In this document: piece after piece, positions 3,749 through 53,667 of the stretch
Layout of the letters: each line of letters begins with the position of its first letter
How positions within the stretch are numbered: the stretch's first letter is position 1
From: Patescibacteria group bacterium
Lineage (GTDB): Bacteria > Patescibacteriota > UBA1384 > XYA2-FULL-43-10
Assembly: GCA_041674405.1 (NCBI GenBank)
Contig: JBAYVT010000004.1
Coordinates: 10,599-74,598, forward strand
Length of the DNA stretch: 64,000 nt
Direction of reading: 5' to 3'
Translations under genes and position numbers: made by a program
Notes under the pieces: model-generated
What the model was told of the DNA's origin: nothing
Database searches by the model: none
What the model saw: the letters and a program-made list of their open reading frames with translations, nothing else

Positions 3749-4209
3749 CCGGCAAAAATTGTGTGCAGGTTCTAAGTGCGGGATTAATGTTCTCGTACTT
3801 TTTTGAATTTTCATAATTTCATCATCCAATTCCATGATTGTCATTCCGCAACGCTTGCTCCGATATTTTAATATTTTTGATCGCAGCAAAATCTCTCATT
3901 TTATTTTGCACAACAAAATAATGGGCGTGAAATACGCTTTTCCCAAAATAAGTAAATTGTATTCGGATTTACTATCACCGCCCCTCGCAAAATTGCACTC
4001 GATAACACACAAGAAAAGTGAGAAACTCGCTTTAGAACTCGATGGACTCCCTCCATCATGTTTTCATTATATAGTATGCCCAGCTATTGGACAACCAATA
4101 TTATCAAGATTTTATTCAAAAAATTATCTGTAGCGCAACAAAATTGGCAAGAGCAATAAAAACACTTTTAAAAAGCGGAAAACAAGAAATAAGCAAATCT
4201 CTTCGAAAA

Positions 4210-7110: not shown

Positions 7111-7150
7111 AATTCTCCAATGCCAAAATAATCTTTGTCTTAGAAAACTT

Positions 7151-7447
7151 TTATATTGAGATATATTTTGTCGTATACAAAATCACAAAAACCAGCACGT
7201 AAATTATTGCCAGAAACACCCCCAGCGAATGATTGAATCTCTTACTGCCAAGCATCAGGTAACCAAGCGATAACCCGAACAAAATTCCAGAAAAACCAAT
7301 CGTTAGAGTCTCTATCGGGTTTCCCCACATCTGGTTCGCCACTACGTCTAGTACCAACAATAGCAAAGCAAGCAATGACAAAGAAACCGGATTGAACAAA
7401 ACTCCTAACTCGCTTTTAGAACTAGCCTTAGCCATGTTCCCCTCCAA
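7151..7447 (-). CDS. Small integral membrane protein (three predicted TM helices), hypothetical
   Basis: 98-aa ORF that is almost entirely hydrophobic helices. It fills the gap between the GT4 gene and gltX. Confidence 0.4.
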   Translation of the reverse strand: MEGNMAKASSKSELGVLFNPVSLSLLALLLLVLDVVANQMWGNPIETLTIGFSGILFGLSLGYLMLGSKRFNHSLGVFLAIIYVLVFVILYTTKYISI

Positions 7448-7459
7448 TTATTCGATTAA

Positions 7460-10115: not shown

Positions 10116-10280
10116 GTTTTATGACATTGTACCAGCAGAATAAATTTTAATCAAATATGATTCTAAATTCGGGATGTCAAAAAATAATAAATCCCAATAT
10201 ATGTCGTTAATGTTGACAATCAATTATGCTGCTGCTAATTTCTCGACGCGAACCAAGACTGAATCGGGAGGTTGACCAAC

Positions 10281-10766
10281 ATGTCCGACCGTAATCTTCT
10301 ATGTGCCCGAGAGATTCTTGAGAAGATCTATCTTTCACGGTATATCTTTCTCTCTGGTCTTTCAGGGTACGACACCGAAGCACAATCCGCCATTGGCACC
10401 TTCGTGGTGCCTACATCCGAGCAACTTCGCTACACAGCCGAACAACTCGGCTATGTCTCCGCCACCGAGCGCCACTCGTGCGTCAATCAGCTCGCATATT
10501 CACTCACTGCTCTGCTTGTCCGCGATCATGCCGGGCAATTCGCGTGTTACGATCTCGAGTCATTTCGAGACCTCTCCTCTGGCTTCCAGATGTGGAATAC
10601 CAAGGAGCACTTCGAGCACAAGAAAGTGCTTCCCCGAGACACGGAGTTCGAGATTAGCATGCACGTGACGCGATCTCGAATCAGCCCTCACGGGCTGAGC
10701 GTCGTCGAAGTGGAACTCAACAGGGGCGTCGATGGTTATGTCCATTTCGCCGTACAGGTAGATTAG
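10281..10766 (+). CDS. Hypothetical protein encoded in a GC-rich (about 57%) island
   Basis: The ORF is 10272..10766, but GGGAGG lies 6 nt before the ATG at 10281 (MSDRNLL...). A near-consensus promoter, TTGACA-17-TAATTT, sits at about 10208-10236. The coding GC is far above its flanks. No recognised domain. Confidence 0.5.
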   Translation: MSDRNLLCAREILEKIYLSRYIFLSGLSGYDTEAQSAIGTFVVPTSEQLRYTAEQLGYVSATERHSCVNQLAYSLTALLVRDHAGQFACYDLESFRDLSSGFQMWNTKEHFEHKKVLPRDTEFEISMHVTRSRISPHGLSVVEVELNRGVDGYVHFAVQVD

Positions 10767-11444: not shown

Positions 11445-11685
11445 TTTACAATTCCGATCTAATTCAGACTTCTGCACTCAAGATTTTGAATTCAGGAGTC
11501 CGCTCTCCTCCCGCCAGTGACGGGAGGAGAGCCGGAGAGGGCGACGAGCCCGGTGGACCTTCGTCCAAACGAGCAAGTCGTGATGCTCCACTCTACCCTG
11601 CAGGAGTCGAGTGGCTTGCTGCACGAGGACAGCGCGCTGACACTAGCCCCTCGTGCAACGAGATGGAGTCTCTCGTGCGAGCGTG

Positions 11686-12030
11686 TTACCTCACCGTCGC
11701 CGAAAACTGGCTCCTCGCTAGGGGCGAGGACTCGAAGTGATAGACGAGGGCCTGCGCCCATCCCGGATCTACGGGAACCCTCGGGCTTAGCAGGATCTCC
11801 GGGGTGCTGATGAGCCGAGGCCCATCTGCCGCGACAATGTGTACTCCTTCGCCAGGCATACGGTAGACAAGCAAGTTCCCGCCCTCGGACCAGGCATAGC
11901 CGCACAGCCCCCTGACGACACTCTGGAGGGTGTGCTGCCCGAGCTTGACCAGCTCACGGACGAGGTCTTCGTACCCCGAACGCATGAGCTGTATCCACTT
12001 TGCCCTACGATTCGAACTTCTCTTAGCCAT
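11686..12030 (-). CDS. Hypothetical protein in a GC-rich (about 60%) island
   Basis: GAGGAGG lies 8 nt upstream of the ATG (ttgaGGAGGaagcacgATG). The 114-aa protein is rich in Arg/Leu/Val and has no recognised motif. A 75-aa ORF at 12023..12250 (-) directly upstream may be a second island gene. Confidence 0.45.
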   Translation of the reverse strand: MAKRSSNRRAKWIQLMRSGYEDLVRELVKLGQHTLQSVVRGLCGYAWSEGGNLLVYRMPGEGVHIVAADGPRLISTPEILLSPRVPVDPGWAQALVYHFESSPLARSQFSATVR

Positions 12031-12316
12031 CGTGCTTCCTCCTCAATGCGGAATTGGCACTAGGCATCCTGCTGTCAGGTTTATTTGGCGCATGAAGTCC
12101 AGCGCCTCCTCTCGTGTGTGATTGACCCTCTAAAGGGCCTTGCTGCGTTTCTGAAACAACCCCACTCGCACAGAAAGTTCTGCAACCACCTCCCTTGAAC
12201 ACTATGAGATTTTCGGCAGGCAGGATTCCCCGATCTATGCCTACCGACAACCATTGCTAAATTGCTGTATTGTTAAATTGCTACCAAAACAATTTAACAG
12301 TTTAACAATGTAACAA

Positions 12317-34199: not shown

Positions 34200-34919
34200 C
34201 TATTTCACCGCGCAGATTATGTCGTAGTTGGGCTCTGCCGCAAGGTTTGGTCTCAAGACTCTCTTCACCCCTAGCCCCCGAACAAGCCCTTCCATTTCGT
34301 TTGGCGCAAGCAAATACGAAAGTGAGCGGTTCTGGAACTGCTGCCCGCGAACGATACCCTTCCCCTCTATCACCCGCGTTCGCCGAAACCAATCGTGGGT
34401 GATGTCAACCGCCATGCTGTAGCCGAGGAAGGAAAGGTTCAGGTGACCACCACCCTGATCAATCTCGTGCTGTGAGATCGTGTCGAGGTAGAGAAGTCCG
34501 CCGCTTTTTAAGGCAGCGAGCATTTCTTTTAGGCTTCTTCCGATCTCCATGCGACACCGACCAGGATCGAAGATATCGCCCTTCCCCCAGCCCCCCACGT
34601 TTGTTAAGCTGTTACCTCTGCATATCACAGCGTCGAAAGTCCTGGCCAGCTCGCGAGCCTTCCGCCAATCCAGTTTGCGAAACTCAATCGCCGGATGGCT
34701 GTGGCGAGCAGTGGCGATGTCGATCATCTCTTCGTCCGCATCGATCCCGACCCCTGTAAAGCCGCGCTCTGCTAAACCGTGCAGCACATGCCCACCGCCG
34801 CATCCACACTCGATGATTGTTCTGACGCCGAGTTCCCGCAGTAAATCCGCTAGTTCTTTGATGAACTCCGAGCCATACATCAGCTCGGACAAGATTACCC
34901 ACTGCTGTGACAGAGTCAC
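34200..34919 (-). CDS. Class I SAM-dependent methyltransferase in a GC-rich (about 57%) island
   Basis: Motif I IIECGCGGGHVLHGLAE and motif II GVGIDADEEM. A terminator hairpin lies downstream, and the gene overlaps the upstream gene by 4 bp. Confidence 0.75.
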   Translation of the reverse strand: MTLSQQWVILSELMYGSEFIKELADLLRELGVRTIIECGCGGGHVLHGLAERGFTGVGIDADEEMIDIATARHSHPAIEFRKLDWRKARELARTFDAVICRGNSLTNVGGWGKGDIFDPGRCRMEIGRSLKEMLAALKSGGLLYLDTISQHEIDQGGGHLNLSFLGYSMAVDITHDWFRRTRVIEGKGIVRGQQFQNRSLSYLLAPNEMEGLVRGLGVKRVLRPNLAAEPNYDIICAVK

Positions 34920-35560
34920 GTGCCTTCAACCTCCTTCATCATGATCACTCGCAGGCCTCCTGTTGCTGCGTCCTCCGGAATAAAATCCGGAGCTATCCAG
35001 AGAAACTTACCCCCAAGCCGGTAGTAGAAGGCCAAGAGCGGGTCGAGGCAAAGTTCGCGATCAGTAGGAAAGGGCCCTCCCGCGAGATGTCGATCTATCG
35101 CCTCCTTGAACGCGGGCCTTTGTCTAATCCCTTCTCTTGGGCTTCCATTGTAGGAGGCCGGCCTCCCGTCAGCTATTCCAAGGATGCAACCATCCGACTT
35201 AATTCGACCAAGCATAGCTTGCGCCAGTAATACTGCTGTGCGGGCATTGCGATACTTATCCTGCACGTTGAGGTTGTAGACGAAGGCACAATCATGGCTG
35301 GTCTCCATCGGCATCGTCGAGAACTCCCCAAAGTTTCTGGAAAATGCTTTGGGATCACTCGGATAAAACCGGGAGTAGGAAAAGCAGATTTTCCCAACCA
35401 GCTCCCCGTCCAGTCTGGCCCCAAGCATGATGTGTCCAAGGCGCAGCCGCTGCTCGATCAGCTCACGGCTGGCGCGCAGATAGGGCGGGAACGACAGGTT
35501 CTCGTCTTCGAGGATTTCGTCCAAATCCTCGAAAGACAACTCGACTATCATCGTGTCCAT
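34916..35560 (-). CDS. Putative GNAT-like acyltransferase in the GC-rich island (start at MDTM, with AGGAGG 7 nt upstream)
   Basis: GC-rich coding begins at the internal Met; upstream of it, the 45 codons of the longer ORF are AT-rich and unlikely to be coding. AFVYNLNVQDKYRNARTAVLLAQAM resembles a GNAT motif A region. Confidence 0.45.
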   Translation of the reverse strand: MDTMIVELSFEDLDEILEDENLSFPPYLRASRELIEQRLRLGHIMLGARLDGELVGKICFSYSRFYPSDPKAFSRNFGEFSTMPMETSHDCAFVYNLNVQDKYRNARTAVLLAQAMLGRIKSDGCILGIADGRPASYNGSPREGIRQRPAFKEAIDRHLAGGPFPTDRELCLDPLLAFYYRLGGKFLWIAPDFIPEDAATGGLRVIMMKEVEGT

Positions 35561-35710
35561 AATGTCTCGCCTCCTTTGGATTCTTCGAAACAAAAAATTA
35601 TCCCTCCGTCTTGGCAGGATGTCAATAATTTGCACAGGGATTTTGTTAGTGATATCCTTTAATCGAGATTGTTTTATTAAAATGTTGTCAAAGTTTTTCA
35701 CAAATAAGTT

Positions 35711-36469
35711 ATGAACTTACAGGCAATTTTAGAGGAATTCGGGCTTTCCAAACGCCAGGCCAGCGTCTATCTGGCAAATTTGGAGTTGGGAGAGGCGAGT
35801 GTTGCTCAAATTGCCGAAAAAGCTCAAATCGAGCGTACTGGCACCTACTACGTTATAGAATCGCTGTGCGGCAAAGGCCTTATCGTCGAGATTGAGCGAG
35901 GCAAAAAAGATTTTTTTGTCGCCATCGAGCCAAAAGAGCTGCTATCAATTGCAAAAAGAAGAGAAAAGTTGATATTAGAACACCTGCAGGAATTTGAGGC
36001 CTTTTCGAATATCTCCTCGGAGAAACCTCATGTCCGCCTTTACACCGGAATCAACGGAATAAAAACGGTTTTTTTAAAAACAATTGAGAAACCAAAAATA
36101 CAGATGCTGGGCTTTTCACCCTACAGAACAGCCGAGAAAACCGCCTGGTACAACGGCAAAGAGTATGTGGAATGGGGTTTGGACTATATCAGGAAACGAG
36201 CCTCCAGAAGGATTTTCGCTCGCACCATCGCTGAAGATACACCGGAATCACAAGCGCGCAAGGGGAGAGACGCTGAAGAACTGCGGGAAACACGTCTGGT
36301 TCCACACGATAAATTCCTGTTCACCAACGAAATAGCCATCCTCGACGATTGGGTCGCGGTAATTTCATACAAAGAGATGGCTGCGCTTGTAATTGAATCA
36401 AAAGAATTTACTAAAACAATGAGATCAATTTTTGAACTAGCATGGGATGGAGCGGAAAAATATTTGTAG
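35711..36469 (+). CDS. TrmB-like HTH transcriptional regulator (paralog of 9357..10115)
   Basis: EEFGLSKRQASVYLANLELGEASVAQIAEKAQIERTGTYYVIESL at the N-terminus, and about 252 aa like its paralog. Confidence 0.6.
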   Translation: MNLQAILEEFGLSKRQASVYLANLELGEASVAQIAEKAQIERTGTYYVIESLCGKGLIVEIERGKKDFFVAIEPKELLSIAKRREKLILEHLQEFEAFSNISSEKPHVRLYTGINGIKTVFLKTIEKPKIQMLGFSPYRTAEKTAWYNGKEYVEWGLDYIRKRASRRIFARTIAEDTPESQARKGRDAEELRETRLVPHDKFLFTNEIAILDDWVAVISYKEMAALVIESKEFTKTMRSIFELAWDGAEKYL

Positions 36470-38681: not shown

Positions 38682-38915
38682 CTATTTGACTTCGTCAATT
38701 CCGCCACCACTCCATGGATTACATCTTAAAACGCGCCAAAACGCAAGTGCAAGGCCCTTTCCGGCCCCGTATTTCATCACCGCTTGGCGGCCATATTCCG
38801 AACAATGCGGAGTATATTTGCAATATCCGCCTGAAAATCTTGCCGAAAACCAACCGGTGTCAGGAGACAATGTCCGCTGATATAATTCAATAATTTTTAT
38901 AACAATCTTTTTCAT
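38682..38915 (-). CDS. yidD: Membrane protein insertion efficiency factor YidD
   Basis: YQRTLSPDTGWFSARFSGGYCKYTPHCSEYGRQAV...RVLRCNPWSGGGID matches the YidD pattern. Confidence 0.88.
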   Translation of the reverse strand: MKKIVIKIIELYQRTLSPDTGWFSARFSGGYCKYTPHCSEYGRQAVMKYGAGKGLALAFWRVLRCNPWSGGGIDEVK

Positions 38916-39253
38916 TTAATTACATTTGCTCTTTTTAAGCCCTCTATTATCTGTAGTTTAATTTTTCCGTAATTATATGGCAGGGGAAAGTCTTGTTTAA
39001 CCATAATCGCTACATCAAAGCCTTGGTTTATCTGTGGCCAAGTTTCTTGCACAATGGCTCTCAGGCGTCTTCGAAGGGCATTGCGGCGGCTTGCCCTTTT
39101 ATCAATCTTGTTTGAAACAACAAATCCAAACCGGGATTTGTCCCGCCCCTTTGCAACACGAAAAACGAGGTTTTCTGTATAAATCGGTTTGGATGATTTA
39201 AAAATCTTCTGAAAATCTTTATTGGTTCGAAGTCTGTTTTGTTTTGGAAGCAT
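38912..39253 (-). CDS. rnpA: RNase P protein component
   Basis: MLPKQNRLRTNKDFQKIFKSSKPIYTENLVFRV...SRRNALRRRLR matches the RnpA pattern. It overlaps yidD by 4 bp. Confidence 0.88.
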   Translation of the reverse strand: MLPKQNRLRTNKDFQKIFKSSKPIYTENLVFRVAKGRDKSRFGFVVSNKIDKRASRRNALRRRLRAIVQETWPQINQGFDVAIMVKQDFPLPYNYGKIKLQIIEGLKRANVIK

Positions 39254-39355
39254 GAGCCGATTTTAGCACAAATATGAGCTTAATACGAATAAACACAGAG
39301 ACAGCCACCTCGATGCGAGATGGCTGCCCTGAAAGTCCCTCCAGGTTGTTGGTCG

Positions 39356-39868
39356 CTAGAAGCGGCCGATGTTGTACTGGGCGCAGACGCTGTCGTCCTG
39401 CCCATCCACGCAGAGCCGGTATAGCCCTGATGCGCGGCCGGACTTCCAACAGAACTGGATGGTCTGGTAGGGCTTGCACCCCGCCTGGTATTTCACATAC
39501 CCCATCGCATCCAGGCCCCTCACGATCTTGACCGGCGGCGTCGTAACGTCCGCCCGCCACGGGTCGTATCCCCACACACGAAGACACGAATTCCAGGGGT
39601 TGACCTCGGCGCCGAGCCTCAGCCGCTCATTGTCCGTCCTGGCAAGCCAGAGGACATCGGCCGGCTTGTACCCTGCCATCAGCAGAGTGTAGGGCCCGTC
39701 CACCTGCTGTTCGGCGTAGAACCACGCCGAACCGCGAGCAACGGTCACGGTTGCAGCCGTGTACTCGCCTTGGACGAACACACCCGGAGACACCGACACC
39801 TCGTCCGCGAAAGCGACCGAGACGGACAAAGCCAACATTGCGATCAGAACAGCGGTAATAGCGCGCAT
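39356..39868 (-). CDS. Secreted Cys-containing hypothetical protein encoded by a GC-rich (about 62%) single-gene insert between rnpA and rpmH
   Basis: Signal peptide MRAITAVLIAMLALSVSVAFA. AGGAGG lies 7 nt before the ATG, with a TTGACA-15-TATATA promoter upstream and a GC hairpin terminator downstream. Confidence 0.55.
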   Translation of the reverse strand: MRAITAVLIAMLALSVSVAFADEVSVSPGVFVQGEYTAATVTVARGSAWFYAEQQVDGPYTLLMAGYKPADVLWLARTDNERLRLGAEVNPWNSCLRVWGYDPWRADVTTPPVKIVRGLDAMGYVKYQAGCKPYQTIQFCWKSGRASGLYRLCVDGQDDSVCAQYNIGRF

Positions 39869-40048
39869 GTTTGCGCCTCCTGTACCCGAAATTGTACGCC
39901 TGATACCGACAATTCAATATATACTATTTCTCATCAATTGTCAATCTTCTCGAGCACAAAAAAAGAACCCGTGGGGCTCCCAAATACATGATTAAATGGT
40001 TATATTATTATTCTCAACAATTTAGCAATACAGCAATTTAGCAATTTA

Positions 40049-40186
40049 TTAGGCTGAAAGTTTCGCTCTGCCTTTCGCTCGGCGGTTTGCAAGAACATTT
40101 CTGCCGGCACGAGAAGCCATGCGCGAGAAAAACCCGTGTTTCTTTGCCCTTCTTCTTTTGTTTGGTTGGTATGTGCCTTTTTTCAT
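40049..40186 (-). CDS. rpmH: Ribosomal protein L34
   Basis: [45 protein letters not shown] matches L34. The listed 97-aa ORF extends far upstream of the true Met. Confidence 0.85.
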
Positions 40187-40342
40187 AAGATCATTCTTCA
40201 AAAATAAAAACACCGAAATCGTGTTTGACTTAAGTAAAGTACCATAATTAATAGTTAAAGTCAACGATTTAGAGATAGTGGCTTTGCCCAGTGAAGAGCC
40301 CGAAACTGAACGAAGTGAATTTTGGAGTGTCTTCACGGACAA

Positions 40343-40695
40343 AGCAATACAATATATGCGTGCAGGAGTAAGGGTCTTAGGGGGCTAGAGGGCTGCCCCG
40401 CAATTAAGCCCTCTGCCCCCTAATATAATGGCTATTTTATTTGTAGGTTTCTCGGCAAGCTCGAAATGACAAGTGTATTTGAGATTGTCTGCCGTACTAC
40501 GTCAGACAAGGCATTAATCCCGAGCTTGTCGAGGGATTGACTCATTCGACTGTGCTCAGAGTCAATCCAAAAACTTTGAGTAATTTATCACCATTATAGC
40601 CACAGCAATTTATCCCGAGCTTGTCGAGGGATTGACACACCCTGTGGATAACTTGATATAGTTTTTACATAAGATTAATTGCCTTAAGGAACTGA
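40343..40695. promoter_or_regulatory. oriC-associated region upstream of dnaA
   Basis: Near-perfect 14-bp inverted repeat GGGGGCTAGAGGGC ... GCCCTCTGCCCCC. Two copies of ATCCCGAGCTTGTCGAGGGATTGAC (each internally palindromic). DnaA box CTGTGGATAA about 40 bp before the dnaA start. Confidence 0.7.
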
Positions 40696-42084
40696 ATGGA
40701 CCTGGTCGAAATTTGGCGAAATTCATTAGGTGAACTCGAAGTGTCCATATCACGGGCCAATTTCACGACGTGGTTTAAAAATACTTTTATTCTCGACTTC
40801 AAAAAGGGCATTTTAACAATCGGGGTGCCAACTTTTTTTGTTGAGGATTGGCTCAAGAAAAAATATTTGTCCGAAATTGAAAAGGCACTAGCTCACCAGA
40901 TCAGCGAGGAAATAAAACAAATAAAGTTTAAGGTTGCCACCCCTTCCACAGAGCAAGTAGTCAGGTTTGAAAAAGACAAAGTTGTCCACACCCCTGTGGA
41001 TAACAAGGAGGCTATTAAACCGACTCACATCGTTCAGACTTTAACAGAAAATTCGACACTAAATGACTATTATAGATTCGACAATTTTGTTGTAGGCTCA
41101 TCCAACCAATTGGCATACGCTGCTGCCGACGCGGTTTCAAAAACCCCTGGAATTGTTTACAATCCTTTATTCATTTATGGCGATTCAGGTCTCGGCAAAA
41201 CTCACCTAATGCAAGCCATCGGGCATCACGTCCTTTCAAAAAATCCAAACAAACGCATCCTTTATGTTAGTTCGGAAACTTTTGTTAATGATTATATTTC
41301 GGCTGTTGAGTCTGGTTCTGGAAAAGCAAAAGATTTCAAAAACCGTTATCGCAACGTCGATGTCCTTTTAATTGACGATATTCAATTTTTATCAGGCAAA
41401 GAGGGGACACAAGAAGAATTTTTTCACACCTTTAATCATTTACACCAAAACAAGAAACAAGTTGTCCTTACCGCTGACCGCACCCCGAAAGCAATTAAAG
41501 GGCTTGAGAGGCGCTTACAAACGCGTTTTGAGGGTGGAATGGTAGCTGACATCGGATTACCGGATTTAGAAACAAGAGCGGCAATTCTGCGACAGAAAGC
41601 CAAAGTTCAAAACTTTGAAGTGCCGGATGATGTCATCAACCATATTGCAGAAAATATTAAATCATCGGTCCGCGAGCTCGAAGGAGCATTGACTAAAATT
41701 TTTGCATTTTGCAATCTAAAACAATGCGAACCAAATATGTCGGTGGCTTCAGAAATATTAGGTAATATTATTGAAGACAGAAGAACCACTATTACTCCAG
41801 ATCTAATCATCCGAGAAATATGCAAATATTTTCATGTCCCTGTTGAGGATTTACTTGGCAGAAAAAGAAATAAAGAGATTGTGCGGCCAAGGCAGGTTGC
41901 AATGTATCTTTTGCGCCACGAGGCATCACTTTCTTTTCCGGAAATTGGGCGGGAAATGGGAGGAAAAGACCACACTACTATTATGCATGGATGCACGAAG
42001 GTAGAGAGTGAAATATCACAAGACTTAAGGTTAAAAGATGAAATATCAAATATTAAAAACAAAGTTCATCTGGTAGTTTCTTAA
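40696..42084 (+). CDS. dnaA: Chromosomal replication initiator DnaA
   Basis: N-terminus WRNSLGELEVSISRANFTTWFKN, Walker A GDSGLGKTHL, Walker B LLIDDIQFL and the C-terminal DNA-binding helix. Confidence 0.95.
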   Translation: MDLVEIWRNSLGELEVSISRANFTTWFKNTFILDFKKGILTIGVPTFFVEDWLKKKYLSEIEKALAHQISEEIKQIKFKVATPSTEQVVRFEKDKVVHTPVDNKEAIKPTHIVQTLTENSTLNDYYRFDNFVVGSSNQLAYAAADAVSKTPGIVYNPLFIYGDSGLGKTHLMQAIGHHVLSKNPNKRILYVSSETFVNDYISAVESGSGKAKDFKNRYRNVDVLLIDDIQFLSGKEGTQEEFFHTFNHLHQNKKQVVLTADRTPKAIKGLERRLQTRFEGGMVADIGLPDLETRAAILRQKAKVQNFEVPDDVINHIAENIKSSVRELEGALTKIFAFCNLKQCEPNMSVASEILGNIIEDRRTTITPDLIIREICKYFHVPVEDLLGRKRNKEIVRPRQVAMYLLRHEASLSFPEIGREMGGKDHTTIMHGCTKVESEISQDLRLKDEISNIKNKVHLVVS

Positions 42085-42520
42085 TTTTCCACATCGGTTT
42101 GGAAATAAAAACAGATATTTATTGTAATAACATTAATAATAAGGCCTGTGGATAGTGTGGAAATCTTTAAAAAATGTTTATCACTTTAACAATTTCAATA
42201 AATATCCTGTGAATTAATTAGTGCACAAGCTGTGTCTTTCCTGTGAAAAAAGCTTTGTAAGTTGTTTATAACTTTTTCAATAAATTTTATCTTTGGAATA
42301 ATTCACATAAATATCCACAATTTTCCACAAGAAAAATCTCAGTTATCCACATATCACAAACAAGAAATAAGAAATAAGAAATGTGGTACTACAAAATTAG
42401 CCATTAACCAAAACCAAAATTATCCACCACCCTGTGGAAAACATCAAAAGTAAATATCAAGCAAAAACCAATACATTATCTAATTAACCAGCCAATCAAT
42501 TAACTAAGAATAGAGGAAAA
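42085..42520. promoter_or_regulatory. oriC: dnaA-dnaN intergenic region with multiple DnaA boxes and an AT-rich unwinding element
   Basis: Boxes TGTGGATAG, TTATCCACA (tcagTTATCCACAtat), ATATCCACA, TTATCCACC/CTGTGGAAA. A 3x AAGAAAT tandem within an AT-rich stretch. Confidence 0.8.
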
Positions 42521-45099: not shown

Positions 45100-45263
45100 A
45101 CGCGAAAGAGCCGCGTTGATCTTGAAGCCCCGCGATTTCCAATCGCGAGGCGTATTCAGCCAAAAAAGATTGGCTGATTTTTGGTACCGCAGGGCGAGTG
45201 GGAGAGTGATTTAAGGATATCAAAATTCTAATTGTAAATGTCAAATAATTATCCACAGAACCT

Positions 45264-45291: not shown

Positions 45292-45374
45292 GGAGCGTTC
45301 GATAATAATCCTTAGGGCGCACAGCTGCGATTAGCGCAGGCGTCCAAGGTACTGATTGTCAGGAGGTGGCAGAC

Positions 45375-46295
45375 ATGCGTCTGTCCACGATAATTGGGTT
45401 AGCTATGATGTTGGTGTCGGGGGCGTTCGCGGGAGAGATCGCAGTCTGCCCGCAGCCTACCCCTCAGAGACTGGCGATCGCGCCGGTCTCTGCCTCGTCC
45501 CTTGGCCAGTTCGAGTGGTGGGTGGACGAAGAGGAGGCGGCCGGCCTGGTCGAGGAGCGAGCCTATGAGGTCGCTCCCTGCATTCTGGCCGCCTACAACA
45601 TGGAGCTGGTAGAGCGGAAGATGCTCGGGATCGCAGAGGCCGAGCAGGCCTTGGCAGAGGATCCGTACATGGACCCCACTACCTTCGAGCAGCCTGGCCA
45701 GGGCGTCGGCGCCAACTGGCTCCTGGTGGTTACGGTCACCAGGATGAGCGTGGAGGATAAGTCCGTGGACGTTGAGATCCGCGGCAACTCCTATCACGCT
45801 GAGAAGTCCATGATAACGGTCTGGCTGCAGGCGCGGATCGTCAATGTGGGGACGAAAGTCGTGTCACCCGCGCTATCGATTCGCAAGAACTGCACGATCA
45901 CGACTGACCAGCAGCTCAGCCTGCAGAGCGGCGAGTGGGATCTGGGCGGTGATCAGCGGACGGACATCGTGACCGATGCCGTCTATAAGATCACCGACTC
46001 TGGTCTTGCCGAGCTCTTGGGGCAGCTGCTGCCCAAGCTTGGCATCAGGACTGGGGCGCAAGCCGGATTCCGGTACGACCCGCAGACGGGCGAACGCATT
46101 TCGGTGATTGAGCAGACATACATCTGCCCGAACCCGAGATGCAACCGGATCTCGCCGAAAGGAGCGAACTTTTGCCCCTACTGCGGCGCCAGGTTGGACC
46201 GGCCCTGCGAACCCGCACCGGCAATCGAAAGGGCGCGGCCCTGTGAGCCGCCACCAGCCGCTAACCGCGACAAGGTGAACCACGCCGGCGGATAG
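45375..46295 (+). CDS. Secreted protein with a C-terminal zinc ribbon, encoded in a GC-rich (about 60%) island
   Basis: Signal peptide MRLSTIIGLAMMLVSGAFAG. C-terminal CPNPRCNRISPKGANFCPYCGARL Cys4 ribbon. A GC-rich hairpin terminator at 46321-46357. Confidence 0.55.
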   Translation: MRLSTIIGLAMMLVSGAFAGEIAVCPQPTPQRLAIAPVSASSLGQFEWWVDEEEAAGLVEERAYEVAPCILAAYNMELVERKMLGIAEAEQALAEDPYMDPTTFEQPGQGVGANWLLVVTVTRMSVEDKSVDVEIRGNSYHAEKSMITVWLQARIVNVGTKVVSPALSIRKNCTITTDQQLSLQSGEWDLGGDQRTDIVTDAVYKITDSGLAELLGQLLPKLGIRTGAQAGFRYDPQTGERISVIEQTYICPNPRCNRISPKGANFCPYCGARLDRPCEPAPAIERARPCEPPPAANRDKVNHAGG

Positions 46296-46377: not shown

Positions 46378-49300
46378 TTAAAATCCGACATGTGTATACG
46401 CGGTAGTCTGTGGATTTGCCCACATGCCAGCCTTGGTGCCGTTACACAAGCCGTTTGTTTGCCCGCCGCCAGTGACATTTTTACATATGGTATCTGATGT
46501 AAGTGCTGACCAAGCATTTACATCTTCCCAACGGCCGGTCATGACCTGGGTTGGGACGAGCTTTTGATCATCTGTACTTGATGGCATGTCGTATAAGTTT
46601 TGGATGAATTTATTGGCCTTGTATTGTGCAGCCTCAATTATCTTTCTCTCTCTGGTTTTACTGTCTATACCATTCCATACCCCGAGATTTCCGTTGTCCA
46701 CTATATCGGGTGATGGTGGTGATTCGATGCTAGGATAATAACCATCAGCTGTACACAAGTATTCAACTTTGTAAACACCAAAGAGGTTATTGTAAAGGAT
46801 AATTGCCACATCAATTGCTGCTTGTATCCAGTTGCCATACAGAAAGCTGATAGTGGCATCCAGAAGAAGCGATAAGGTGCCAGGAGCAAGTCCGAGCTGC
46901 TCGTCCCATTTTGCCAATGTGTCGCCCAGAACAAGCCTTGCCGCATAAGAGATTGCCGCAGCCTTGGCATTTGCAAGATTGGCACCAGAAGCCCCGCTTC
47001 CGCCGGACGCAGCAAATGCCTGCTCTGCCTGTTTAAAGTTCTGGTACAAATTATAAAGATTTTGGCTTGTGCCTGGCGGCAGACCAAATGTCTTGTCAAC
47101 AAATCCGCCAACAAAGTTTAGGGCAAACGATGGGCCCCCATAAATGTCTGCTAGAGATTGAAGCTTATTTCCAGCTATTGATAGTGCCCCTTCTAAGCTT
47201 CCAGTCTGAAGAAATCCAAGAATACCACCGAATGTGCCTTGGCCGAAATCGACCCCAAAAATCGAGGCTGCCTTACCTGTAATGTAATTATCTATTGTGT
47301 TAACGAGAGTTCCGTCGGCAGTGGCTGATCCCAAAAGGCCATTCAAAGCGCTCTTAAAGTCAAAGCTGTTCGGATCAGAAATAAAATTTTGTAGTGTTCC
47401 CAAGAATCCGCCCGGAAGAAAATCTATTCCGAGGTCATTCCGGATTAAGCCCTCGGCATATTCAAGTAGGGTAGTTGTCCGCGTCCAATCATTCCCCTGA
47501 AACATGCTGCGGGCAAAATCGGCAGGAATATTCGGATCCAGCCTGTGCAAGGCTAAATCAATTGATTTATACTCCACTCCCTGGCTCCAAATATTTGTAG
47601 CAAAGTCGATTGCTGCTTGCCCAGCGTTTAAGACATCAAGCGCTCGAGTATTGCCAATTCGAACATTTAGAAGGCTGTCAATTGCCGCCCCTGTATCAAT
47701 CCCAGCAGTAATGCGCAATCCATTGTCAACTTGAAGATTTAGAATCGGCGCACTTGAAGTATCCGATGCACCCGGGAAATTAAGGCCAATGTTAATAATC
47801 CCGTTTGGAGGCCCAAGGTTAGATGATGTAGTAGAATCGGACAATATCCCGGTTGAAACGTTGAAGGTGGCGTTACCGGCGGCGATCGTCCAGTTGTAAC
47901 TAGAATTAGTCAGCTGGTTCCATCTTTGTTGCTCTGCTGCCAGGCGAACGGCAATTTCCTGTGTTAAATCTCCATATACCAATCGCGTTAGATCGCTAAA
48001 ATTAAACTTGAATGAATTTAGGGCATTTATTGCGTTGTCGTATGTTTCAAATATTCCCAAATTGAAGGGCAATCCGTCTTTGCCGGAATACATTTGGGGG
48101 ATATTCATGACTGCACCTAGGAGCTGAATCGGCCTAAAATCCCCATAGAGAATTTGCTGGAAAGTTGAAGAGTCAAACCCGTCCATGTTTAGGAGATTTT
48201 TGAGAGAATATTCCAGGTTGCCGGCAATATCTTTGATCGTGAAATTAACTTGCAAATCTTTAAAAGCGTCCCCGACAAGTGTGTTTAACTGTCCCCCGAT
48301 CGTGGACTTGAGGCAAGATTCCGTATCTCCACTGCCGCCAAATATCGAGAGCCCGCATCTTATGTCCGGATTGCCCAAGATCAATGTCTTGAATACTGAA
48401 GTCAATCCTAAACTGCTGTCAAATGCCTCGGCACCAAAGGATATTAATCTGTTAAAAGTTGTCTGAGGGTCTTGCAGAATTGTGGCCATGGTGCCTTCCG
48501 GCAAACCGGCTTTTTTATCCAGATTCCAAGAGAAAATATTGTTTAATGTACCATAAAGATCACCCATGTTATCGCCGGGATCTTTGATCCAGGTGATGAG
48601 ATTGTTTATGTCGCCATCTGTTATTTGCCTGTCGCTGCCGTCTTGTAGCCCGAGTCCTTTTATCAAACCCGAAATCAAATTGTTCTGAGTTGCGGCATCA
48701 GTAACCTGGCGTACGTATTGGTTTATCGGGAAAATCTCACCCAGGCTTCCCGCGGTTGGCGAGGCAAGAAGCTTGACTGTTGTGCCATCCGGCAGCCCGA
48801 GATTGCGATCCAGAAAAGATAATCTGCCAACGAAGTTGTTCCACGAAGGTTCGTTCTGGCTAAATAAGGTGGCAATTGTATCCGAATTAAATCCACCGGT
48901 GCTTCCTTTTGAGACCAGGGAATCAATTGTCTTTTGTAATGCATCATTCACTCCGGTCCAGTTAGTGCCTAAGGCCTGGTAATAAGTTACAACGGAGTTT
49001 AGTTTTTGATAAAAGCTGTTTCCTGCATTCACATTAAAGAAATTTTCACCCATAGACTTTAATTCTGCATTTACAACACTGATCTCTTCTTGGCTTACCG
49101 GAATTTGGAACGCTTCGGCAAATTTAACAACCCCGACATTCTTTGCAACACCCAAAATATTTCCGCTTTTTAGCGACCCAGCCGGTAATCCGAGCAGTGA
49201 CTCTGCTTTATTTGACCCAACACTGCTACCGGTGAACAAAGAAGCCAAGTCAAGGTTGCCTGTGCCAATAGAGTTACCGATAAGATTAGTTGATATTTGA

Positions 49301-52300
49301 GTGGCTGCGCACTTTCTTGCGCTTGCATTATCATTGTTTAGGAGCCCCGAAGCGGTACCTTTTTGCAGATTGAGGCTAGAATCTAGAATTGAGCTGCCGA
49401 TTTTTGCGAATACGCTCTTTGAATTGCCGTTAAATATATTGAAGATATCGTCAGCGGTCAATCTTCCGGATCCTATTTGTGTTCCGATAGATTGGTTTAC
49501 AGAAGATGCGGCAAGCTTGTCGACTATGTTGTAGCCAGAAACCTTTAGGTAGTCGAGCGGGACTTGCCCACCGGAGCTATTTTTATTCTGCCTTGAAAAT
49601 ACCGCTTCGCTTTCTTCAGTCGAGATATTTAGCCCGAAGTCCAAAATCTTTTCAAATTGGATAAGATTAGCATCGCTAAATGGCTTGGACGATGTATTAT
49701 CAGAAACAAATGTGTCTAGGGCAGCTTTTATTTTATCAGCACTTCCATAATCCTTTAGGAAGTCTTTTGCCGCGGCAATTCCTTCGGCAGAAAATTGTGG
49801 CGGGAATGACCTAAAATAATTTTCGAGGTAAGAAGGAACTCCGCTGCCTGTTTGTGAAGCTCCTTTAGATATGTCCAAAGATAACAAATAAACTGCGTTT
49901 GCAATTTCGTCAGTATAATTTATTTTTTTATCATCGTTTGCGCTCTTGTATTCACTAGCAGCAGAATATGTGCTAAATATATGTTCGCCGGCTTTGTCGA
50001 AATACACGTAGCTATTGTCTGGTATGGTCGTGCCTGCGATATCGACATTTTGTATGGGCTGGCAGGGATTGTCAGGCGTTGCTGCTGCCATTAAGTAATT
50101 GTTGTGGTCGACGAAGTAAATTTGGTTAACCCCAGGATTGTCATTTCCTCCCTTGTGTGTCATAAACGCCTTAATCGCTGCTTCGGAAACATGCATTTTT
50201 GTTGCCAAAAGCCTGATAGTATCGCTGTCAGCTTCCGATTGGTCATATCCACCGATTTGTTGTCCGGTGATAAATTTCTCGGTCGTCCCGGCCGGCAGCT
50301 TGCTTTTCACGTCATTCGCAATCGCCTTGGAGCGAGCCGAAGACCACGCGCTGAAGCTGTTGTTCATAAGGTCATCAAGATCAAATCCCTTTAGTCCCAT
50401 GCCCGATGCAAGAATATTGTTTGCTTTGCTCCGGCTTATTTTCAATTTGTTTACCATGCCGTCACGAAGGTCTGCCAAAGATTTTGGTGACGACAGATCA
50501 GATCCTGTTAAAATTGAGCTTCCGGCAACTCCAGCTTGCTCCTCAAGAGCTGCTGAACCGATGGCACGGAAAAAAATGTCTTTGAAACTTTGGCTGTTCT
50601 TTGCTTGGTCATTGTTTTTTGCCAGAGCCAGTGCGTCCGAAGCATATTTTAGGGCCTTTGAAGAGATCCCCAAGCTGCCGCTTAGTTTAGCTGAGGCAGC
50701 GCCAGATACTAAATCTTGCAAAGTAGTTTTTCCGGACAGGAACGAAACCAGGTCTCCCAATCCAAGCTTGGAGCCACCCAGATCGATGGAGGAAAACTTA
50801 ATATCACTCAAGTGCAAATCTTCAATCTTAAAATCCGCCTGCTCGTTTCCAGTGGTGATCTCATATGCAGATTTTGTGATATCTTGTACATTCTGCATTA
50901 CGCCATTGAGCTGGTGCAGATAATCGGAAAATGTTCCGTCATTGCTTGAAAGGCCTTCGGAGAGATCTGTAGATCCGGAAAATACCGGGGAGCTTGCTTC
51001 GTTAATGATACTGCCAATCGCGATTGCGGCTGTTGTTGTGTCTCCGCCTCCCGGGTTTGCATCAGCCTTTTCGGCAGCGGTCGCGAACACAGACAAAGCC
51101 TGTTTTAGAGCGTCATCCTTTGCTTTTATTGTGCTATTTAATTTGTCTGATACTGCGCTTGAAGCAGACGTATAACTTTGTATTCGTTGATTTAGAGTGT
51201 TCAGTGTGGACTTAATGCCGTTGATTCGGTCGGTATAATATGCCTGATCGCGAACATTTTTATTTTCTAATACATTTGAATTGTTTGCTTCTTGTGTTTT
51301 TTTATCGTCATAGCCCGAAGTCTCAAGTGCTTGCCTTAAGTTTTTTTGCCCTATTTTTTTGAAAGTACCGGCCGGGTCTGATCCTATGCCAAATAAATTT
51401 GCGAAATCGATCTGGTTTATGCCAAGCCTTGAGGCATAGGTTTGCACCTGGATTTGTGCGGTCTGCAAAGACGGCTCCTCTGCTGTATTGGTGGGAACAT
51501 CTGTTGTAAATGTTGCATTTGGATTTTTAAACCAGTTGCTCAAATTTGTTCTTGATTGCTCGCCGTTTTCAAGAGCGCTCGATAGAGCAAAGATGCCAGC
51601 GTTCAATAACTGGTCCTGAGAAATTGTCCCCCCAAGAAAACTGGCCAGAGTGCCGGCAGGCAGATTAAAAATACTATCATTTTGGCCATATGAACCATTA
51701 AAGTTTTTGTATACATCCGCTCTTTTTGTGATGTAGCTTTCTGCAATTTGCTGTAGATAATTTGGAAGAGAAAGAACCCCGGCCTTAAGAGACGCTGTTG
51801 TTCCCGATCCCAAGCCGAAATCGGTATCGAGGGCACTTGGAAATGCGATTATGGTTGAAAGCTGGTTTTTTCCAATTGTAGAAAGCACATCATTAAGTCC
51901 GGATTTATTGAATGATCCCGAGGCAAGGCCAAATTGATTTTCAATTAATCTTGCTCCGATTTGGCTATATAGGCTTGGCTGATTCATTGACTGAACGTCG
52001 AAAACTCCCTCTGGCAGTGAAAGTTCTTGAATTATTCTCTCTCTTCCGATTTGGGCGAGAATATCGGCCCTGTTCTCGCCGGTGAGTGAGCCGTAGGGGA
52101 GGCCAAGGGCTTGTTCTATCCCGGCCCTACCCAGAGATTCTTCGAGGCCATCAATATTTAAGACCGAACCATCCATAAATGGGCCAGAAGGCAACGATAA
52201 GGCTTCTGCAATTATCGAGCCGCCGATTTGTTGTAACGTACCGGAAAGGTCAAGGTTCCAAAAATCTGAATCAGTTCCAGAGTTGATGGTATTGGCAAGA

Positions 52301-53667
52301 AATTGTTGGCCAACCAAGGTTAATACATCACTGAAACTATCTATGTTCATATTCTGTATATCAGAGAAATTCAGCCCGAGGCCAGATAGCATTTCAGTTA
52401 TCGAGTCCTGGGACATTCTCTGTATTGCCGTATTGAAACTGGAATCAATCGCTGCCTTGTCTTTATTGTATCCTTCGGATGTTTGCCACAAGAGCTTAAT
52501 GTTCATTGGAGGCTGGGGGATCTTGGTATCGCTGCCAATGCGGCGTTTTTTGATCAAGGTGCAGCGTATATCATCGATTTGCGAAATATCAAAAGCCTGC
52601 CCTGCATTATGCGCTGAAACTATCCGCGGGCTTTCATTGGTAATAATAAAATCTGAGATCGATTTCCCGTTATCATCAACGAGTTGCCCGCTTAAGAGGC
52701 TATCCTTTTGCTGAATTCCTGCTTCCGCTGCTAGTTCCCCAACGCCAGAATTGTCTTCCTGTGCCTTGTATTCCTCAATTGTTTGTTCTGATTCGGCTTT
52801 TTTCTCACTGTCTTTTTGTTCGGCCACCTCAGATTCCCTGGAGAATTTGGTTACATCGTTTGTATAACTATTTCTAATCTTATCAACCTGAATTCGCCAG
52901 TGCCCGGCACCTCCAATGGGGCTATTTTTTGGACGGACCAGATAATTGAGGGTATCAATAATCCGTTTATCAATTTTGGTATTTATAATACCTTCGACAG
53001 CGGAAACCACATATTGTTTTCCTGAATCATCCTGCATTTGTTGAATCATTGATTCTTGGTCAGTTTCAAATATCTGTGCAAGAATATTTGGGCTTGCGAG
53101 AAGACGCTGTGTTAGATATCCCTGCGTGAAATATTTTGCGGATGCGTTGTCAGCAAATTTTGAAAAGCCTTCCCAGTCACTTTCGCGCATTTGGTTTAGG
53201 CTGCTTATGTCTTTGCCGGTTAAGCGTGAAAGCTCAGACGCATCGCTTTTAAGGTCTGGGAGAACAGAATTGACCAAAGCAATATTTTCCAGATCTTTCT
53301 TGTCGCTTGGGTTTAGAATTATTTTGTCCGACAAAATCAAACCGGTTGAGCTCGCATTTTTATTAAGTGGTGCAGGCGCAACGTATTGGGTGACTGGGGC
53401 TGCATCAGTGTCTGGGGTGGCAATCAACTCATCGGCAGGGAGCGAATCATCAAAATTATCTGTTGCCGGTCCGCTTGCGGGAACTGTATCTTTAGCAGAT
53501 TCTCCGGAGTAATCAGCATCTGACCCAACCTGGTCATTTCCTGAATTAGCATATTGATCCTCTTCGAGTGCCTGCACAATCATGGGTTGGTATGGCAACA
53601 TTACCGAAGTTATGATTACAATCGGTATTACTAGAAAAGAAAACAATTTTATAAATTTATTTGTCAT
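46378..53667 (-). CDS. Giant secreted or surface protein (2429 aa) with no recognised catalytic domain and a recurrent G-[LF]-P-x-G-[TS] motif
   Basis: N-terminal signal/TM MTNKFIKLFSFLVIPIVIITSV. A single uninterrupted frame. Motifs LGLPYGSLTG, LSLPEGVF, LSLPSGPF, LGLPAGSLKSG, LGLPDGTTV, AGLPEGTMA, GLAPGTLS and FGLPPGTSQ recur along the length. Confidence 0.7.
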   Translation of the reverse strand: MTNKFIKLFSFLVIPIVIITSVMLPYQPMIVQALEEDQYANSGNDQVGSDADYSGESAKDTVPASGPATDNFDDSLPADELIATPDTDAAPVTQYVAPAPLNKNASSTGLILSDKIILNPSDKKDLENIALVNSVLPDLKSDASELSRLTGKDISSLNQMRESDWEGFSKFADNASAKYFTQGYLTQRLLASPNILAQIFETDQESMIQQMQDDSGKQYVVSAVEGIINTKIDKRIIDTLNYLVRPKNSPIGGAGHWRIQVDKIRNSYTNDVTKFSRESEVAEQKDSEKKAESEQTIEEYKAQEDNSGVGELAAEAGIQQKDSLLSGQLVDDNGKSISDFIITNESPRIVSAHNAGQAFDISQIDDIRCTLIKKRRIGSDTKIPQPPMNIKLLWQTSEGYNKDKAAIDSSFNTAIQRMSQDSITEMLSGLGLNFSDIQNMNIDSFSDVLTLVGQQFLANTINSGTDSDFWNLDLSGTLQQIGGSIIAEALSLPSGPFMDGSVLNIDGLEESLGRAGIEQALGLPYGSLTGENRADILAQIGRERIIQELSLPEGVFDVQSMNQPSLYSQIGARLIENQFGLASGSFNKSGLNDVLSTIGKNQLSTIIAFPSALDTDFGLGSGTTASLKAGVLSLPNYLQQIAESYITKRADVYKNFNGSYGQNDSIFNLPAGTLASFLGGTISQDQLLNAGIFALSSALENGEQSRTNLSNWFKNPNATFTTDVPTNTAEEPSLQTAQIQVQTYASRLGINQIDFANLFGIGSDPAGTFKKIGQKNLRQALETSGYDDKKTQEANNSNVLENKNVRDQAYYTDRINGIKSTLNTLNQRIQSYTSASSAVSDKLNSTIKAKDDALKQALSVFATAAEKADANPGGGDTTTAAIAIGSIINEASSPVFSGSTDLSEGLSSNDGTFSDYLHQLNGVMQNVQDITKSAYEITTGNEQADFKIEDLHLSDIKFSSIDLGGSKLGLGDLVSFLSGKTTLQDLVSGAASAKLSGSLGISSKALKYASDALALAKNNDQAKNSQSFKDIFFRAIGSAALEEQAGVAGSSILTGSDLSSPKSLADLRDGMVNKLKISRSKANNILASGMGLKGFDLDDLMNNSFSAWSSARSKAIANDVKSKLPAGTTEKFITGQQIGGYDQSEADSDTIRLLATKMHVSEAAIKAFMTHKGGNDNPGVNQIYFVDHNNYLMAAATPDNPCQPIQNVDIAGTTIPDNSYVYFDKAGEHIFSTYSAASEYKSANDDKKINYTDEIANAVYLLSLDISKGASQTGSGVPSYLENYFRSFPPQFSAEGIAAAKDFLKDYGSADKIKAALDTFVSDNTSSKPFSDANLIQFEKILDFGLNISTEESEAVFSRQNKNSSGGQVPLDYLKVSGYNIVDKLAASSVNQSIGTQIGSGRLTADDIFNIFNGNSKSVFAKIGSSILDSSLNLQKGTASGLLNNDNASARKCAATQISTNLIGNSIGTGNLDLASLFTGSSVGSNKAESLLGLPAGSLKSGNILGVAKNVGVVKFAEAFQIPVSQEEISVVNAELKSMGENFFNVNAGNSFYQKLNSVVTYYQALGTNWTGVNDALQKTIDSLVSKGSTGGFNSDTIATLFSQNEPSWNNFVGRLSFLDRNLGLPDGTTVKLLASPTAGSLGEIFPINQYVRQVTDAATQNNLISGLIKGLGLQDGSDRQITDGDINNLITWIKDPGDNMGDLYGTLNNIFSWNLDKKAGLPEGTMATILQDPQTTFNRLISFGAEAFDSSLGLTSVFKTLILGNPDIRCGLSIFGGSGDTESCLKSTIGGQLNTLVGDAFKDLQVNFTIKDIAGNLEYSLKNLLNMDGFDSSTFQQILYGDFRPIQLLGAVMNIPQMYSGKDGLPFNLGIFETYDNAINALNSFKFNFSDLTRLVYGDLTQEIAVRLAAEQQRWNQLTNSSYNWTIAAGNATFNVSTGILSDSTTSSNLGPPNGIINIGLNFPGASDTSSAPILNLQVDNGLRITAGIDTGAAIDSLLNVRIGNTRALDVLNAGQAAIDFATNIWSQGVEYKSIDLALHRLDPNIPADFARSMFQGNDWTRTTTLLEYAEGLIRNDLGIDFLPGGFLGTLQNFISDPNSFDFKSALNGLLGSATADGTLVNTIDNYITGKAASIFGVDFGQGTFGGILGFLQTGSLEGALSIAGNKLQSLADIYGGPSFALNFVGGFVDKTFGLPPGTSQNLYNLYQNFKQAEQAFAASGGSGASGANLANAKAAAISYAARLVLGDTLAKWDEQLGLAPGTLSLLLDATISFLYGNWIQAAIDVAIILYNNLFGVYKVEYLCTADGYYPSIESPPSPDIVDNGNLGVWNGIDSKTRERKIIEAAQYKANKFIQNLYDMPSSTDDQKLVPTQVMTGRWEDVNAWSALTSDTICKNVTGGGQTNGLCNGTKAGMWANPQTTAYTHVGF

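Follow-up and report, generated by a model that had tools for sequence, protein, structure and literature searches.

Phage morons are single genes of deviant base composition that lie between two adjacent genes and have a promoter and a terminator of their own. Hot spots of horizontal gene transfer (HGT) that lack mobile elements, are flanked by core genes and are turned over by homologous recombination have also been described (Oliveira et al. 2017, PMC5635113). Here we analyze a stretch of 64,000 nucleotides (nt) from a Patescibacteria group bacterium (assembly GCA_041674405.1, contig JBAYVT010000004.1, positions 10,599 to 74,598 of the forward strand), referred to as the window, in which a gene rich in guanine and cytosine (GC) lies between rpmH and rnpA. 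We conclude that this cassette is a strain-variable single-gene islet of moron-like build in a hot spot inside the rpmH-rnpA pair. It has two odd features, a persistent GC excess and, according to structure prediction, an outer-membrane-type fold in a one-membrane phylum. The complete reading that we favor, with moderate confidence, is that of a dispensable accessory gene that forms an independent transcription unit, occupies a recombination hot spot and belongs to a family of predicted porin-like barrels.

A GC-rich gene between rpmH and rnpA

On the minus strand of the window, rpmH is followed by an interval of 795 nt and then by rnpA, yidD (YidD Pfam match, E 5.9e-24), yidC and jag, and dnaA is divergent from the rpmH side, starting at 40696. 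A preliminary description of the locus had stated that rpmH and rnpA are almost always adjacent. Indeed, in the other loci where tblastn detected both genes, the gap had a median of 76 nt and did not exceed 150 nt in 36 of 49 cases. A junction of 795 nt is unusual. The interval contains a single long open reading frame (ORF) for a protein of 170 amino acids (aa). The features of the junction are listed below; the -10-like element and the Shine-Dalgarno motif were read from the sequence.

38912-39253, minus strand: rnpA, RNase P protein, 113 aa, downstream neighbor (Pfam PF00825 Ribonuclease_P, E 1.6e-21)
39260-39271, minus strand: extended -10-like element TTGTGCTAAAAT, 6 nt 5' of the rnpA ATG
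39329-39299, minus strand: intrinsic-terminator-like hairpin of the cassette, 14 pairs (8 G-C), followed by the T-rich tail CTGTGTTTAT; the left composition change-point is also at 39299
39299-39902, no strand: GC-rich block of ~604 nt with ~0.6 GC, from a change-point scan and a 30-nt GC profile
39356-39868, minus strand: 170-aa ORF, Sec-type signal peptide (residues 1-21, ending in AFA before DE) and ~150-aa mature domain with an aromatic end (YNIGRF)
39881-39876, minus strand: Shine-Dalgarno motif AGGAGG, 7 nt 5' of the ATG
39944-39916, minus strand: cassette promoter resembling the sigma-70 type, TTGACA-17 nt-TATATT, in agreement with the consensus at 11 of 12 positions and situated just beyond the GC-rich block
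39981-39963, minus strand: intrinsic-terminator-like hairpin of rpmH, 8-pair stem GGGAGCCCCACGGGTTCTT followed by TTTTTGTG (T7 run), which would stop the rpmH transcript
40049-40186, minus strand: rpmH, ribosomal protein L34, 45 aa, upstream neighbor (Pfam PF00468 Ribosomal_L34, E 2.9e-20; ORF listing)

The GC content of the ORF was 0.626, as the preliminary description had estimated (~62%), with 0.60, 0.48 and 0.80 at the three codon positions. The window background was 0.442 (standard deviation 0.054 among 400-nt windows), that is ~44% and not the ~40% given earlier. At third codon positions (GC3), the cassette ORF reached 0.795, against ~0.40 in host genes. The GC-rich block coincides with the predicted transcript, from just past the -10 box through the terminator. 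The promoter itself is AT-rich like the host (0.20 GC in the 30-nt window 39910-39939). In layout, the cassette is a host-like AT-rich promoter followed by a GC-rich 5' untranslated region (UTR), the ORF and a GC-rich terminator. The expression signals reported earlier are present, including the Shine-Dalgarno motif and the hairpin terminator; the promoter had been given as TTGACA-15-TATATA, an alternative spacing of the bases that we read as TTGACA-17-TATATT.

The arrangement TTGTGCTAGTTT-6 nt-ATG in front of rnpA is kept in three loci of a sister species (L100, L101 and L102), with or without the cassette. The element at 39260-39271 is a putative rnpA promoter that would give a leaderless transcript. 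Since rpmH apparently ends in a terminator of its own and a conserved extended -10-like box precedes rnpA, the junction in this clade would tolerate an insertion, and these two signals together may make it a safe site for one.

Presence, absence and exchange of the cassette

Comparison of the junction in sister genomes, suggested in the preliminary description, revealed accessory behavior. The loci L100, L101 and L102 belong to one species and their flanks are 97-99% identical. In L100 and L101 a family member stands between rpmH and rnpA, as in the window, and L102 is without the cassette: 789 nt of L100 are replaced there by 127 unrelated nt. The cassettes of L100 and L101 show ~2% divergence (150-nt windows). 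The first ~110 nt of rnpA are common to L100 and L101 and 12% diverged from L102, and the rest of the gene is common to L101 and L102 and 10% diverged from L100. Upstream of rpmH there is also a block in which cassette-bearing and cassette-free strains differ by 12%. The background divergence of the flanks is 0-3%, compared with 10-12% in these blocks. Recombination tracts whose breakpoints lie in the core flanks make up this mosaic, which points to exchange of the cassette by homologous recombination.

Flanking direct or inverted repeats and target-site duplications were not found beyond chance in 38900-40700, and none bracketed 39299-39950. No integrase or transposase Pfam match was present within 10 kb on either side of the cassette. 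The stretch AGCTCTTTTTTGGTTGA, common to L100 and L102, was rejected as a duplication, as it is the rpmH terminator tail plus a -35 box. According to our model, members of the family would be gained, lost and swapped between related strains via homologous recombination in the flanking core genes. The cassette site itself would be a recombination hot spot flanked by two core genes of a low-GC Patescibacteria genome, with the replication origin ~2.5 kb away.

The probable origin region comprises 40187-40695 and 42085-42520. There are four perfect DnaA boxes (40643, 40995, 42343 and 45249; 0.5 expected by chance), the GC content of the dnaA-dnaN spacer is 0.25-0.27, and the rpmH-dnaA spacer contains a 32-nt direct repeat (40513-40544 and 40608-40639) and a hairpin (40381-40420). 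Both GC-rich genes of this part of the window, the cassette ORF 39356-39868 and a second gene at 45366-46295 described below, lie within ~3.5 kb of the probable origin region.

The position next to rnpA recurs in other family members. The member of the L100-type cluster was located directly upstream of rnpA in all 9 contigs carrying it, and the member in L010 lies between a divergent TrmB gene and rnpA, so that the family gene directly precedes rnpA in three lineages (window, L100/L101 and L010). The L007 member is placed between TrmB and a methyltransferase gene. L007 and L010 have the cassette 5'UTR and 3' hairpin in common. The closer relatives L093, L096 and L099 are without the cassette. 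It is possible that common descent with repeated loss, or some site preference, explains the recurrence of such a rare family at one junction.

A different picture was seen in L095, where a GC-rich insert (0.58-0.65) of 1042 nt at 1822-2863 separates rpmH from rnpA and contains an ORF of 171 aa that begins with a signal-like sequence. In a shifted frame, the motif LRSDEGGARLG weakly resembles the family, with an E value of 1.9 that is not significant; the insert may be a decayed family member or a different insert. The window region 34200-35701 (minus strand), which adjoins the gene of the TrmB regulator (35711-36469), codes for a 239-aa methyltransferase and a GNAT-like acetyltransferase whose GC content is moderately raised (0.51-0.55). 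In L007, the barrel-family member takes up the corresponding slot between TrmB and a methyltransferase. The 214-aa gene in this slot of the window was considered as a family member and rejected, as it encodes a GNAT acetyltransferase.

A family of exported proteins with a predicted barrel fold

A word-indexed search of 5.8 billion proteins returned the window protein itself as the only match. An exhaustive phmmer search of 1.84 billion representatives identified three secreted proteins of the same size (P0007, P0008 and P0010), a profile search added P0011 and P0012, and a scan of all fetched loci with the family hidden Markov model added a 189-aa member in L100 and L101. Four further phmmer matches (P0004, P0005, P0006 and P0009) consisted of many short stretches in repeat proteins of 1000-3000 aa and were discarded as low-complexity or repeat artefacts. 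The family so far comprises seven homologous lineages (window, L007, L008, L010, L011, L092 and L100/L101). Identity to the window protein is 25-36%, and among the other members it reaches up to 66%; conserved columns are present. The ratio of nonsynonymous to synonymous divergence (dN/dS) was ~0.29 for L100 versus L101 and 0.19 for L007 versus L010 (dN 0.27, dS ~1.4). Because dN is well below dS between homologues, we conclude that the product of the 170-aa ORF is a real protein under purifying selection.

No Pfam match was obtained at E up to 10 for five members, and none in NCBIfam. Comparison of PDB sequences with the family profile gave only noise, and PHROGs only marginal matches (E 0.2 or more) to the signal-peptide region. 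No members were found in IMG/VR with the family alignment, nor by tblastn in PLSDB plasmids and GenBank phages. The neighbors of the homologues are Patescibacteria-like: pilMNO without a secretin gene, TrmB, RNase III, NusB, L32 and RnpA. A DnaA scan of GTDB genomes revealed no close sister (best identity 48%), and the useful relatives were obtained from a YidC metagenome scan. Literature searches yielded nothing on GC-rich islets or beta-barrels in Patescibacteria. The gene would belong to a small, unannotated and fast-evolving family that is GC-rich in low-GC Patescibacteria-like contigs.

The N-terminus of the window protein, MRAITAVLIAMLALSVSVAFA followed by DE, is by inspection a Sec signal peptide, and signal-peptide-like N-termini were recognized in the same way in all members. 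AlphaFold (AF2) predicted an all-beta meander following the signal helix for the window protein (predicted local distance difference test, pLDDT, 72.0; predicted template modeling score, pTM, 0.60). The model of P0008 has the same strand topology (pLDDT 82.8, pTM 0.71). In a Foldseek comparison with the PDB, nearly all of the top 40 matches were outer-membrane barrels, among them the KdgM porin 4fqe (template modeling score, TM, 0.60/0.63, E 7e-5, root-mean-square deviation 4.2 Å over 179 columns) and a designed 12-stranded membrane barrel, 9fdg (TM 0.64). Further matches were the beta-domains of intimin and invasin, OmpG, general porins and the Occ family; FABP/CRABP, nitrobindin and LolA-like proteins ranked lower. 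A C-terminal aromatic residue is part of the signal for outer-membrane protein assembly. The C-terminus is F or W in six of the seven family sequences, and the seventh ends in W-P. On these models, an exported 12-stranded porin-like barrel is a reasonably probable product of the gene. The pore function is a more tentative proposal: exported via Sec, the barrel would form a pore or channel, either on the cell surface or where the cell meets a host.

The product may instead be a soluble or wall-associated secreted beta-barrel of the ligand-binding or adhesin-like type and not a membrane pore, an alternative that we regard as less likely. It would suit the established view that Patescibacteria have no known outer membrane or beta-barrel assembly machinery (BAM), and in the L007 genome pilM, pilN and pilO are not followed by a secretin gene. 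Strands with a hydrophobic-polar alternation are typical of soluble barrels as well, such proteins are represented among the lower-ranked Foldseek matches, and the five Cys residues in the mature part of the window protein, which are not conserved among family members, are unusual for outer-membrane proteins. However, the best and most numerous matches are membrane barrels with 10-14 strands that align over the full length (TM 0.60-0.64), the lumen of a plug-less 12-stranded barrel would probably be too wide for a hydrophobic core, and the aromatic last residue in six of seven C-termini also speaks against a soluble protein. The porin-like barrel that we prefer would be either self-inserting, possibly into a host membrane, or, failing this, soluble or wall-associated.

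GC excess across the family

The preliminary description had regarded homologues with an ordinary GC content as evidence against its interpretation. None were found: in all seven lineages the gene is 15-26 GC points above its surroundings (0.55-0.63 versus 0.32-0.44).

Window: gene GC 0.626, flank GC 0.44
L007: gene GC 0.615, flank GC 0.40
L008: gene GC 0.568, flank GC 0.36
L010: gene GC 0.552, flank GC 0.33
L011: gene GC 0.562, flank GC 0.39
L092: gene GC 0.627, flank GC about 0.36
L100/L101: gene GC 0.57, flank GC 0.42-0.44

We conclude that the GC excess belongs to the family and not to the window copy alone.

A second GC-rich single gene of the window is located at 45366-46295 (plus strand; GC 0.627, GC3 0.79). 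It is flanked by a dciA-like gene and a 2429-aa ORF, and the perfect DnaA box at 45249 is nearby. Its 306-aa product begins with a signal-like sequence and ends in a zinc ribbon, and the gene has its own terminator hairpin. The only relative found was P0003 (L005), which is ~50% identical and syntenic with the same giant gene. The P0003 gene has a GC content of 0.61 and a GC3 of 0.73, and the sequence just downstream 0.43-0.47. The C-terminus of the neighboring gene shows 71% protein identity between the two genomes, its synonymous sites are saturated (proportion of synonymous differences 0.74), and its GC3 is 0.47 in both. Since GC3 is 0.73-0.79 in both copies of the GC-rich gene, the excess looks persistent and appears to have outlived the saturation of neutral sites; repeated replacement at the same site is the alternative. 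A persistent excess could be due to ongoing exchange with a GC-rich gene pool, to selection on composition or to biased conversion.

The preliminary description had proposed a recent and functional acquisition, conceivably from a high-GC partner. Such a single horizontal transfer, in which the donor composition was kept and host-like expression signals were gained, would account for the GC3 of 0.80 versus ~0.40 in host genes and for the sharp compositional boundaries. The source organism is a metagenome-assembled genome named as Patescibacteria, in agreement with the earlier guess of an organism of the Candidate Phyla Radiation type; scattered GC-rich single genes in related genomes, enzymes included, fit import from GC-rich neighbors, and an outer-membrane-like fold would suit a two-membrane donor. 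Nevertheless, no relative was found in Actinobacteria, where close relatives would have supported the proposal, or in any other high-GC organism, plasmid or phage by protein, profile and vector searches, although the large searches also missed the L100-type cluster. The same rare family occupies the same junction in the window and L100, with RnpA 51% and the cassette proteins 28% identical, which does not fit a single recent import. In each of the seven lineages a GC-rich member lies in a low-GC context, the cassette UTRs and the TrmB neighbor are common to L007 and L010 despite a dS of ~1.4, and the second GC-rich gene keeps its GC3 of 0.73-0.79 in a syntenic relative next to saturated synonymous sites. 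We therefore consider a single recent acquisition improbable: the evidence argues against it and for a long-standing or recurrent association. What stands of the original proposal is that the cassette is a real coding accessory unit.

Other GC-rich genes, giant ORFs and neighboring features

Although the cassette is indeed a single-gene unit, as first described, it is not the only GC-rich island of the window, since 45366-46295 and a third patch at 11492-12250 (GC 0.60-0.64), between rplS and the next gene, are comparably GC-rich. The best ORF in this third patch is 11686-12030 (minus strand; 114 aa, GC3 0.73). It had no match in Pfam, NCBIfam or PHROGs, and a search of the patch against Rfam at E up to 1 gave only two chance microRNA matches. 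A 164-aa ORF at 10272-10766 (plus strand), in which GC is mildly raised (0.53, GC3 0.62), has a sub-threshold Pfam match to an FcoT-like thioesterase (E 2.3e-5, 24.4 bits, cut-off 27).

Related genomes also contain scattered GC-rich single genes, some of which encode enzymes. In L092, two small secreted beta-rich genes with a GC content of 0.61-0.63 are arranged in tandem at 136-1268, one for a 186-aa protein outside the family and one for the 191-aa family member P0010; after them the GC content falls abruptly to ~0.36, and the next gene has a weak DUF7387 Pfam match. Near the origin of the sister species, a 175-aa ORF (GC 0.62, GC3 0.77) lies between dnaA and rpmH (L100 ~3600-4130; L102 4259-4786, minus strand). 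L102 also contains, after yidC, a 422-aa ORF at 6921-8189 (minus strand) with a GC content of 0.60 that, by eye only, resembles a decarboxylase dependent on pyridoxal phosphate; the donor of this ORF might be traceable.

Two giant ORFs are probably large surface proteins. The first (2-3895, minus strand) encodes at least 1298 aa, runs off the left end of the window and has a GC-rich, proline-rich-looking patch at ~1200-2400. The second (46378-53667, minus strand) is the 2429-aa ORF next to the second GC-rich gene and has no Pfam match.

Coding capacity and contiguity of the locus

The GC-rich block could in principle be a structured non-coding RNA or another non-coding element with a spurious ORF. 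The cassette transcript folds somewhat better than shuffled sequences (z = -2.7, with 20 shuffles only), and the terminator hairpin contributes part of this folding energy. We did not accept a functional RNA on a score that comes from 20 shuffles and includes the terminator. A non-coding element is scarcely credible in view of the strong three-base periodicity, the conservation at the amino-acid level with dN well below dS, the confident and reproducible fold prediction and the lack of any Rfam match in 39200-40700 at E up to 1.

The exact window protein is encoded in four data sets (ENA ERZ27247358, assembled with MEGAHIT; Logan SRR6484325; JGI 3300037067; Logan SRR22315508), and the contigs from all four are 100% identical to the window. 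Those of ENA ERZ27247358 and SRR6484325 cross both junctions, and those of JGI and SRR22315508 cross the rpmH-side junction. The mis-joining of a high-GC fragment into a Patescibacteria contig, raised in the preliminary description as the way in which the cassette could prove an artefact, would be compatible with the abrupt GC change and with contig ends clustered near the 3' junction in three assemblies, but such a chimera is very unlikely, and the least probable of the explanations considered here, because contigs from separate data sets are 100% identical to the window, two of them crossing both junctions, and homologous cassettes occur at the same junction of another species in at least 9 contigs.

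Four contig ends from three assemblies lie at 39263, 39273, 39324 and 39354, at the 3' border of the cassette, and 40304 in the rpmH-dnaA spacer is the start of two Logan contigs. These clustered ends may reflect branching of the assembly graph through strain heterogeneity around a module of rpmH plus cassette.

Assessment and significance

Several points weigh against the interpretation that we favor. Presence and absence of the cassette were seen in the sister species, whose RnpA is 51% identical, and not in the population of the window itself, for which the clustered contig ends (39263-39354 and 40304) are the sole hint. The large-scale searches missed the L100-type cluster, which has 14 near-identical proteins from many samples; family size and host range are thus lower bounds, and absence from other phyla, including two-membrane bacteria, is unproven. 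The taxonomy of the short homologue contigs was assigned from gene context alone. The AlphaFold input was an alignment of five members only, and curated models of outer-membrane barrels (Pfam KdgM, OMP_b-brl and others) had no sequence match in any member tested. Patescibacteria are regarded as one-membrane bacteria without an outer membrane or BAM, which leaves a barrel without an obvious home. Finally, the proposed reading offers no mechanism for the GC excess. The fold is a prediction, and the pore function, the site of action of the protein and the reason for the persistence of its GC content are what we infer.

A more far-reaching scenario is that single-membrane epibionts export small self-inserting porin-like barrels that enter the outer membrane of a two-membrane host, or form a pore at the contact site, and so tap host metabolites. 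The gene would then be strain-variable as it tracks host specificity, and its GC excess would come from a gene-specific force, for instance selection on composition or ongoing exchange with a GC-rich pool, rather than from a one-off transfer. Taken as a whole, this scenario is a long shot.

If the fold prediction is true, an outer-membrane-type barrel family exists in a phylum thought to lack an outer membrane, and this family is a testable candidate for a channel that ultra-small epibionts open to their hosts. An excess of 15-26 GC points that is kept across deep divergence conflicts with the expected drift of foreign DNA toward host composition, and the family offers a tractable case for the gene-by-gene maintenance of composition. 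Moreover, the nearly universal rpmH-rnpA pairing has turned into a hot spot of recombination in one clade of the Patescibacteria, in which rpmH and rnpA apparently have separate transcription signals of their own.

Comparison with known systems

Unlike an insertion sequence or a miniature inverted-repeat transposable element, the cassette has no terminal inverted repeats or target-site duplication around 39299-39950. It resembles integron cassettes in consisting of a single ORF followed by an imperfect hairpin, and the comparison of L007 with L010 suggests a conserved unit of 5'UTR, ORF and 3' hairpin without the promoter. In contrast to integron cassettes, there is no attC-type site with a GTTRRRY core, no nearby integrase and no cassette array.

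The cassette is like a phage moron in that it has its own promoter, one ORF, its own terminator and a deviant GC content, and leaves the flanking transcription units undisturbed. However, it is located among core genes (dnaA, rpmH, rnpA, yidD and yidC) with no phage genes nearby, and no member was found in IMG/VR or GenBank phages.

For the product, the closest described proteins are the small monomeric porins of the KdgM/NanC type (4fqe), with which the window protein would share a 12-stranded antiparallel barrel, as predicted, and a similar size; both start with a Sec signal peptide and end in an aromatic residue. The window family differs in having no detectable sequence similarity to any outer-membrane protein family and a shorter mature domain (~150 aa) with short loops. 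Furthermore, its genes are GC-rich, strain-variable islets in organisms regarded as one-membrane bacteria without BAM.

As in the hot spots without mobile elements (PMC5635113), the cassette occupies one core-gene interval, is present or absent among conspecific strains, as shown in the sister species, and has recombination tracts in its core flanks without an integrase, a transposase or terminal repeats. In contrast to these hot spots, a single gene is exchanged here, at a site next to the origin that separates the usually closely spaced rpmH and rnpA; one rare family recurs at this site across deeply diverged lineages, and its compositional anomaly persists rather than fades.

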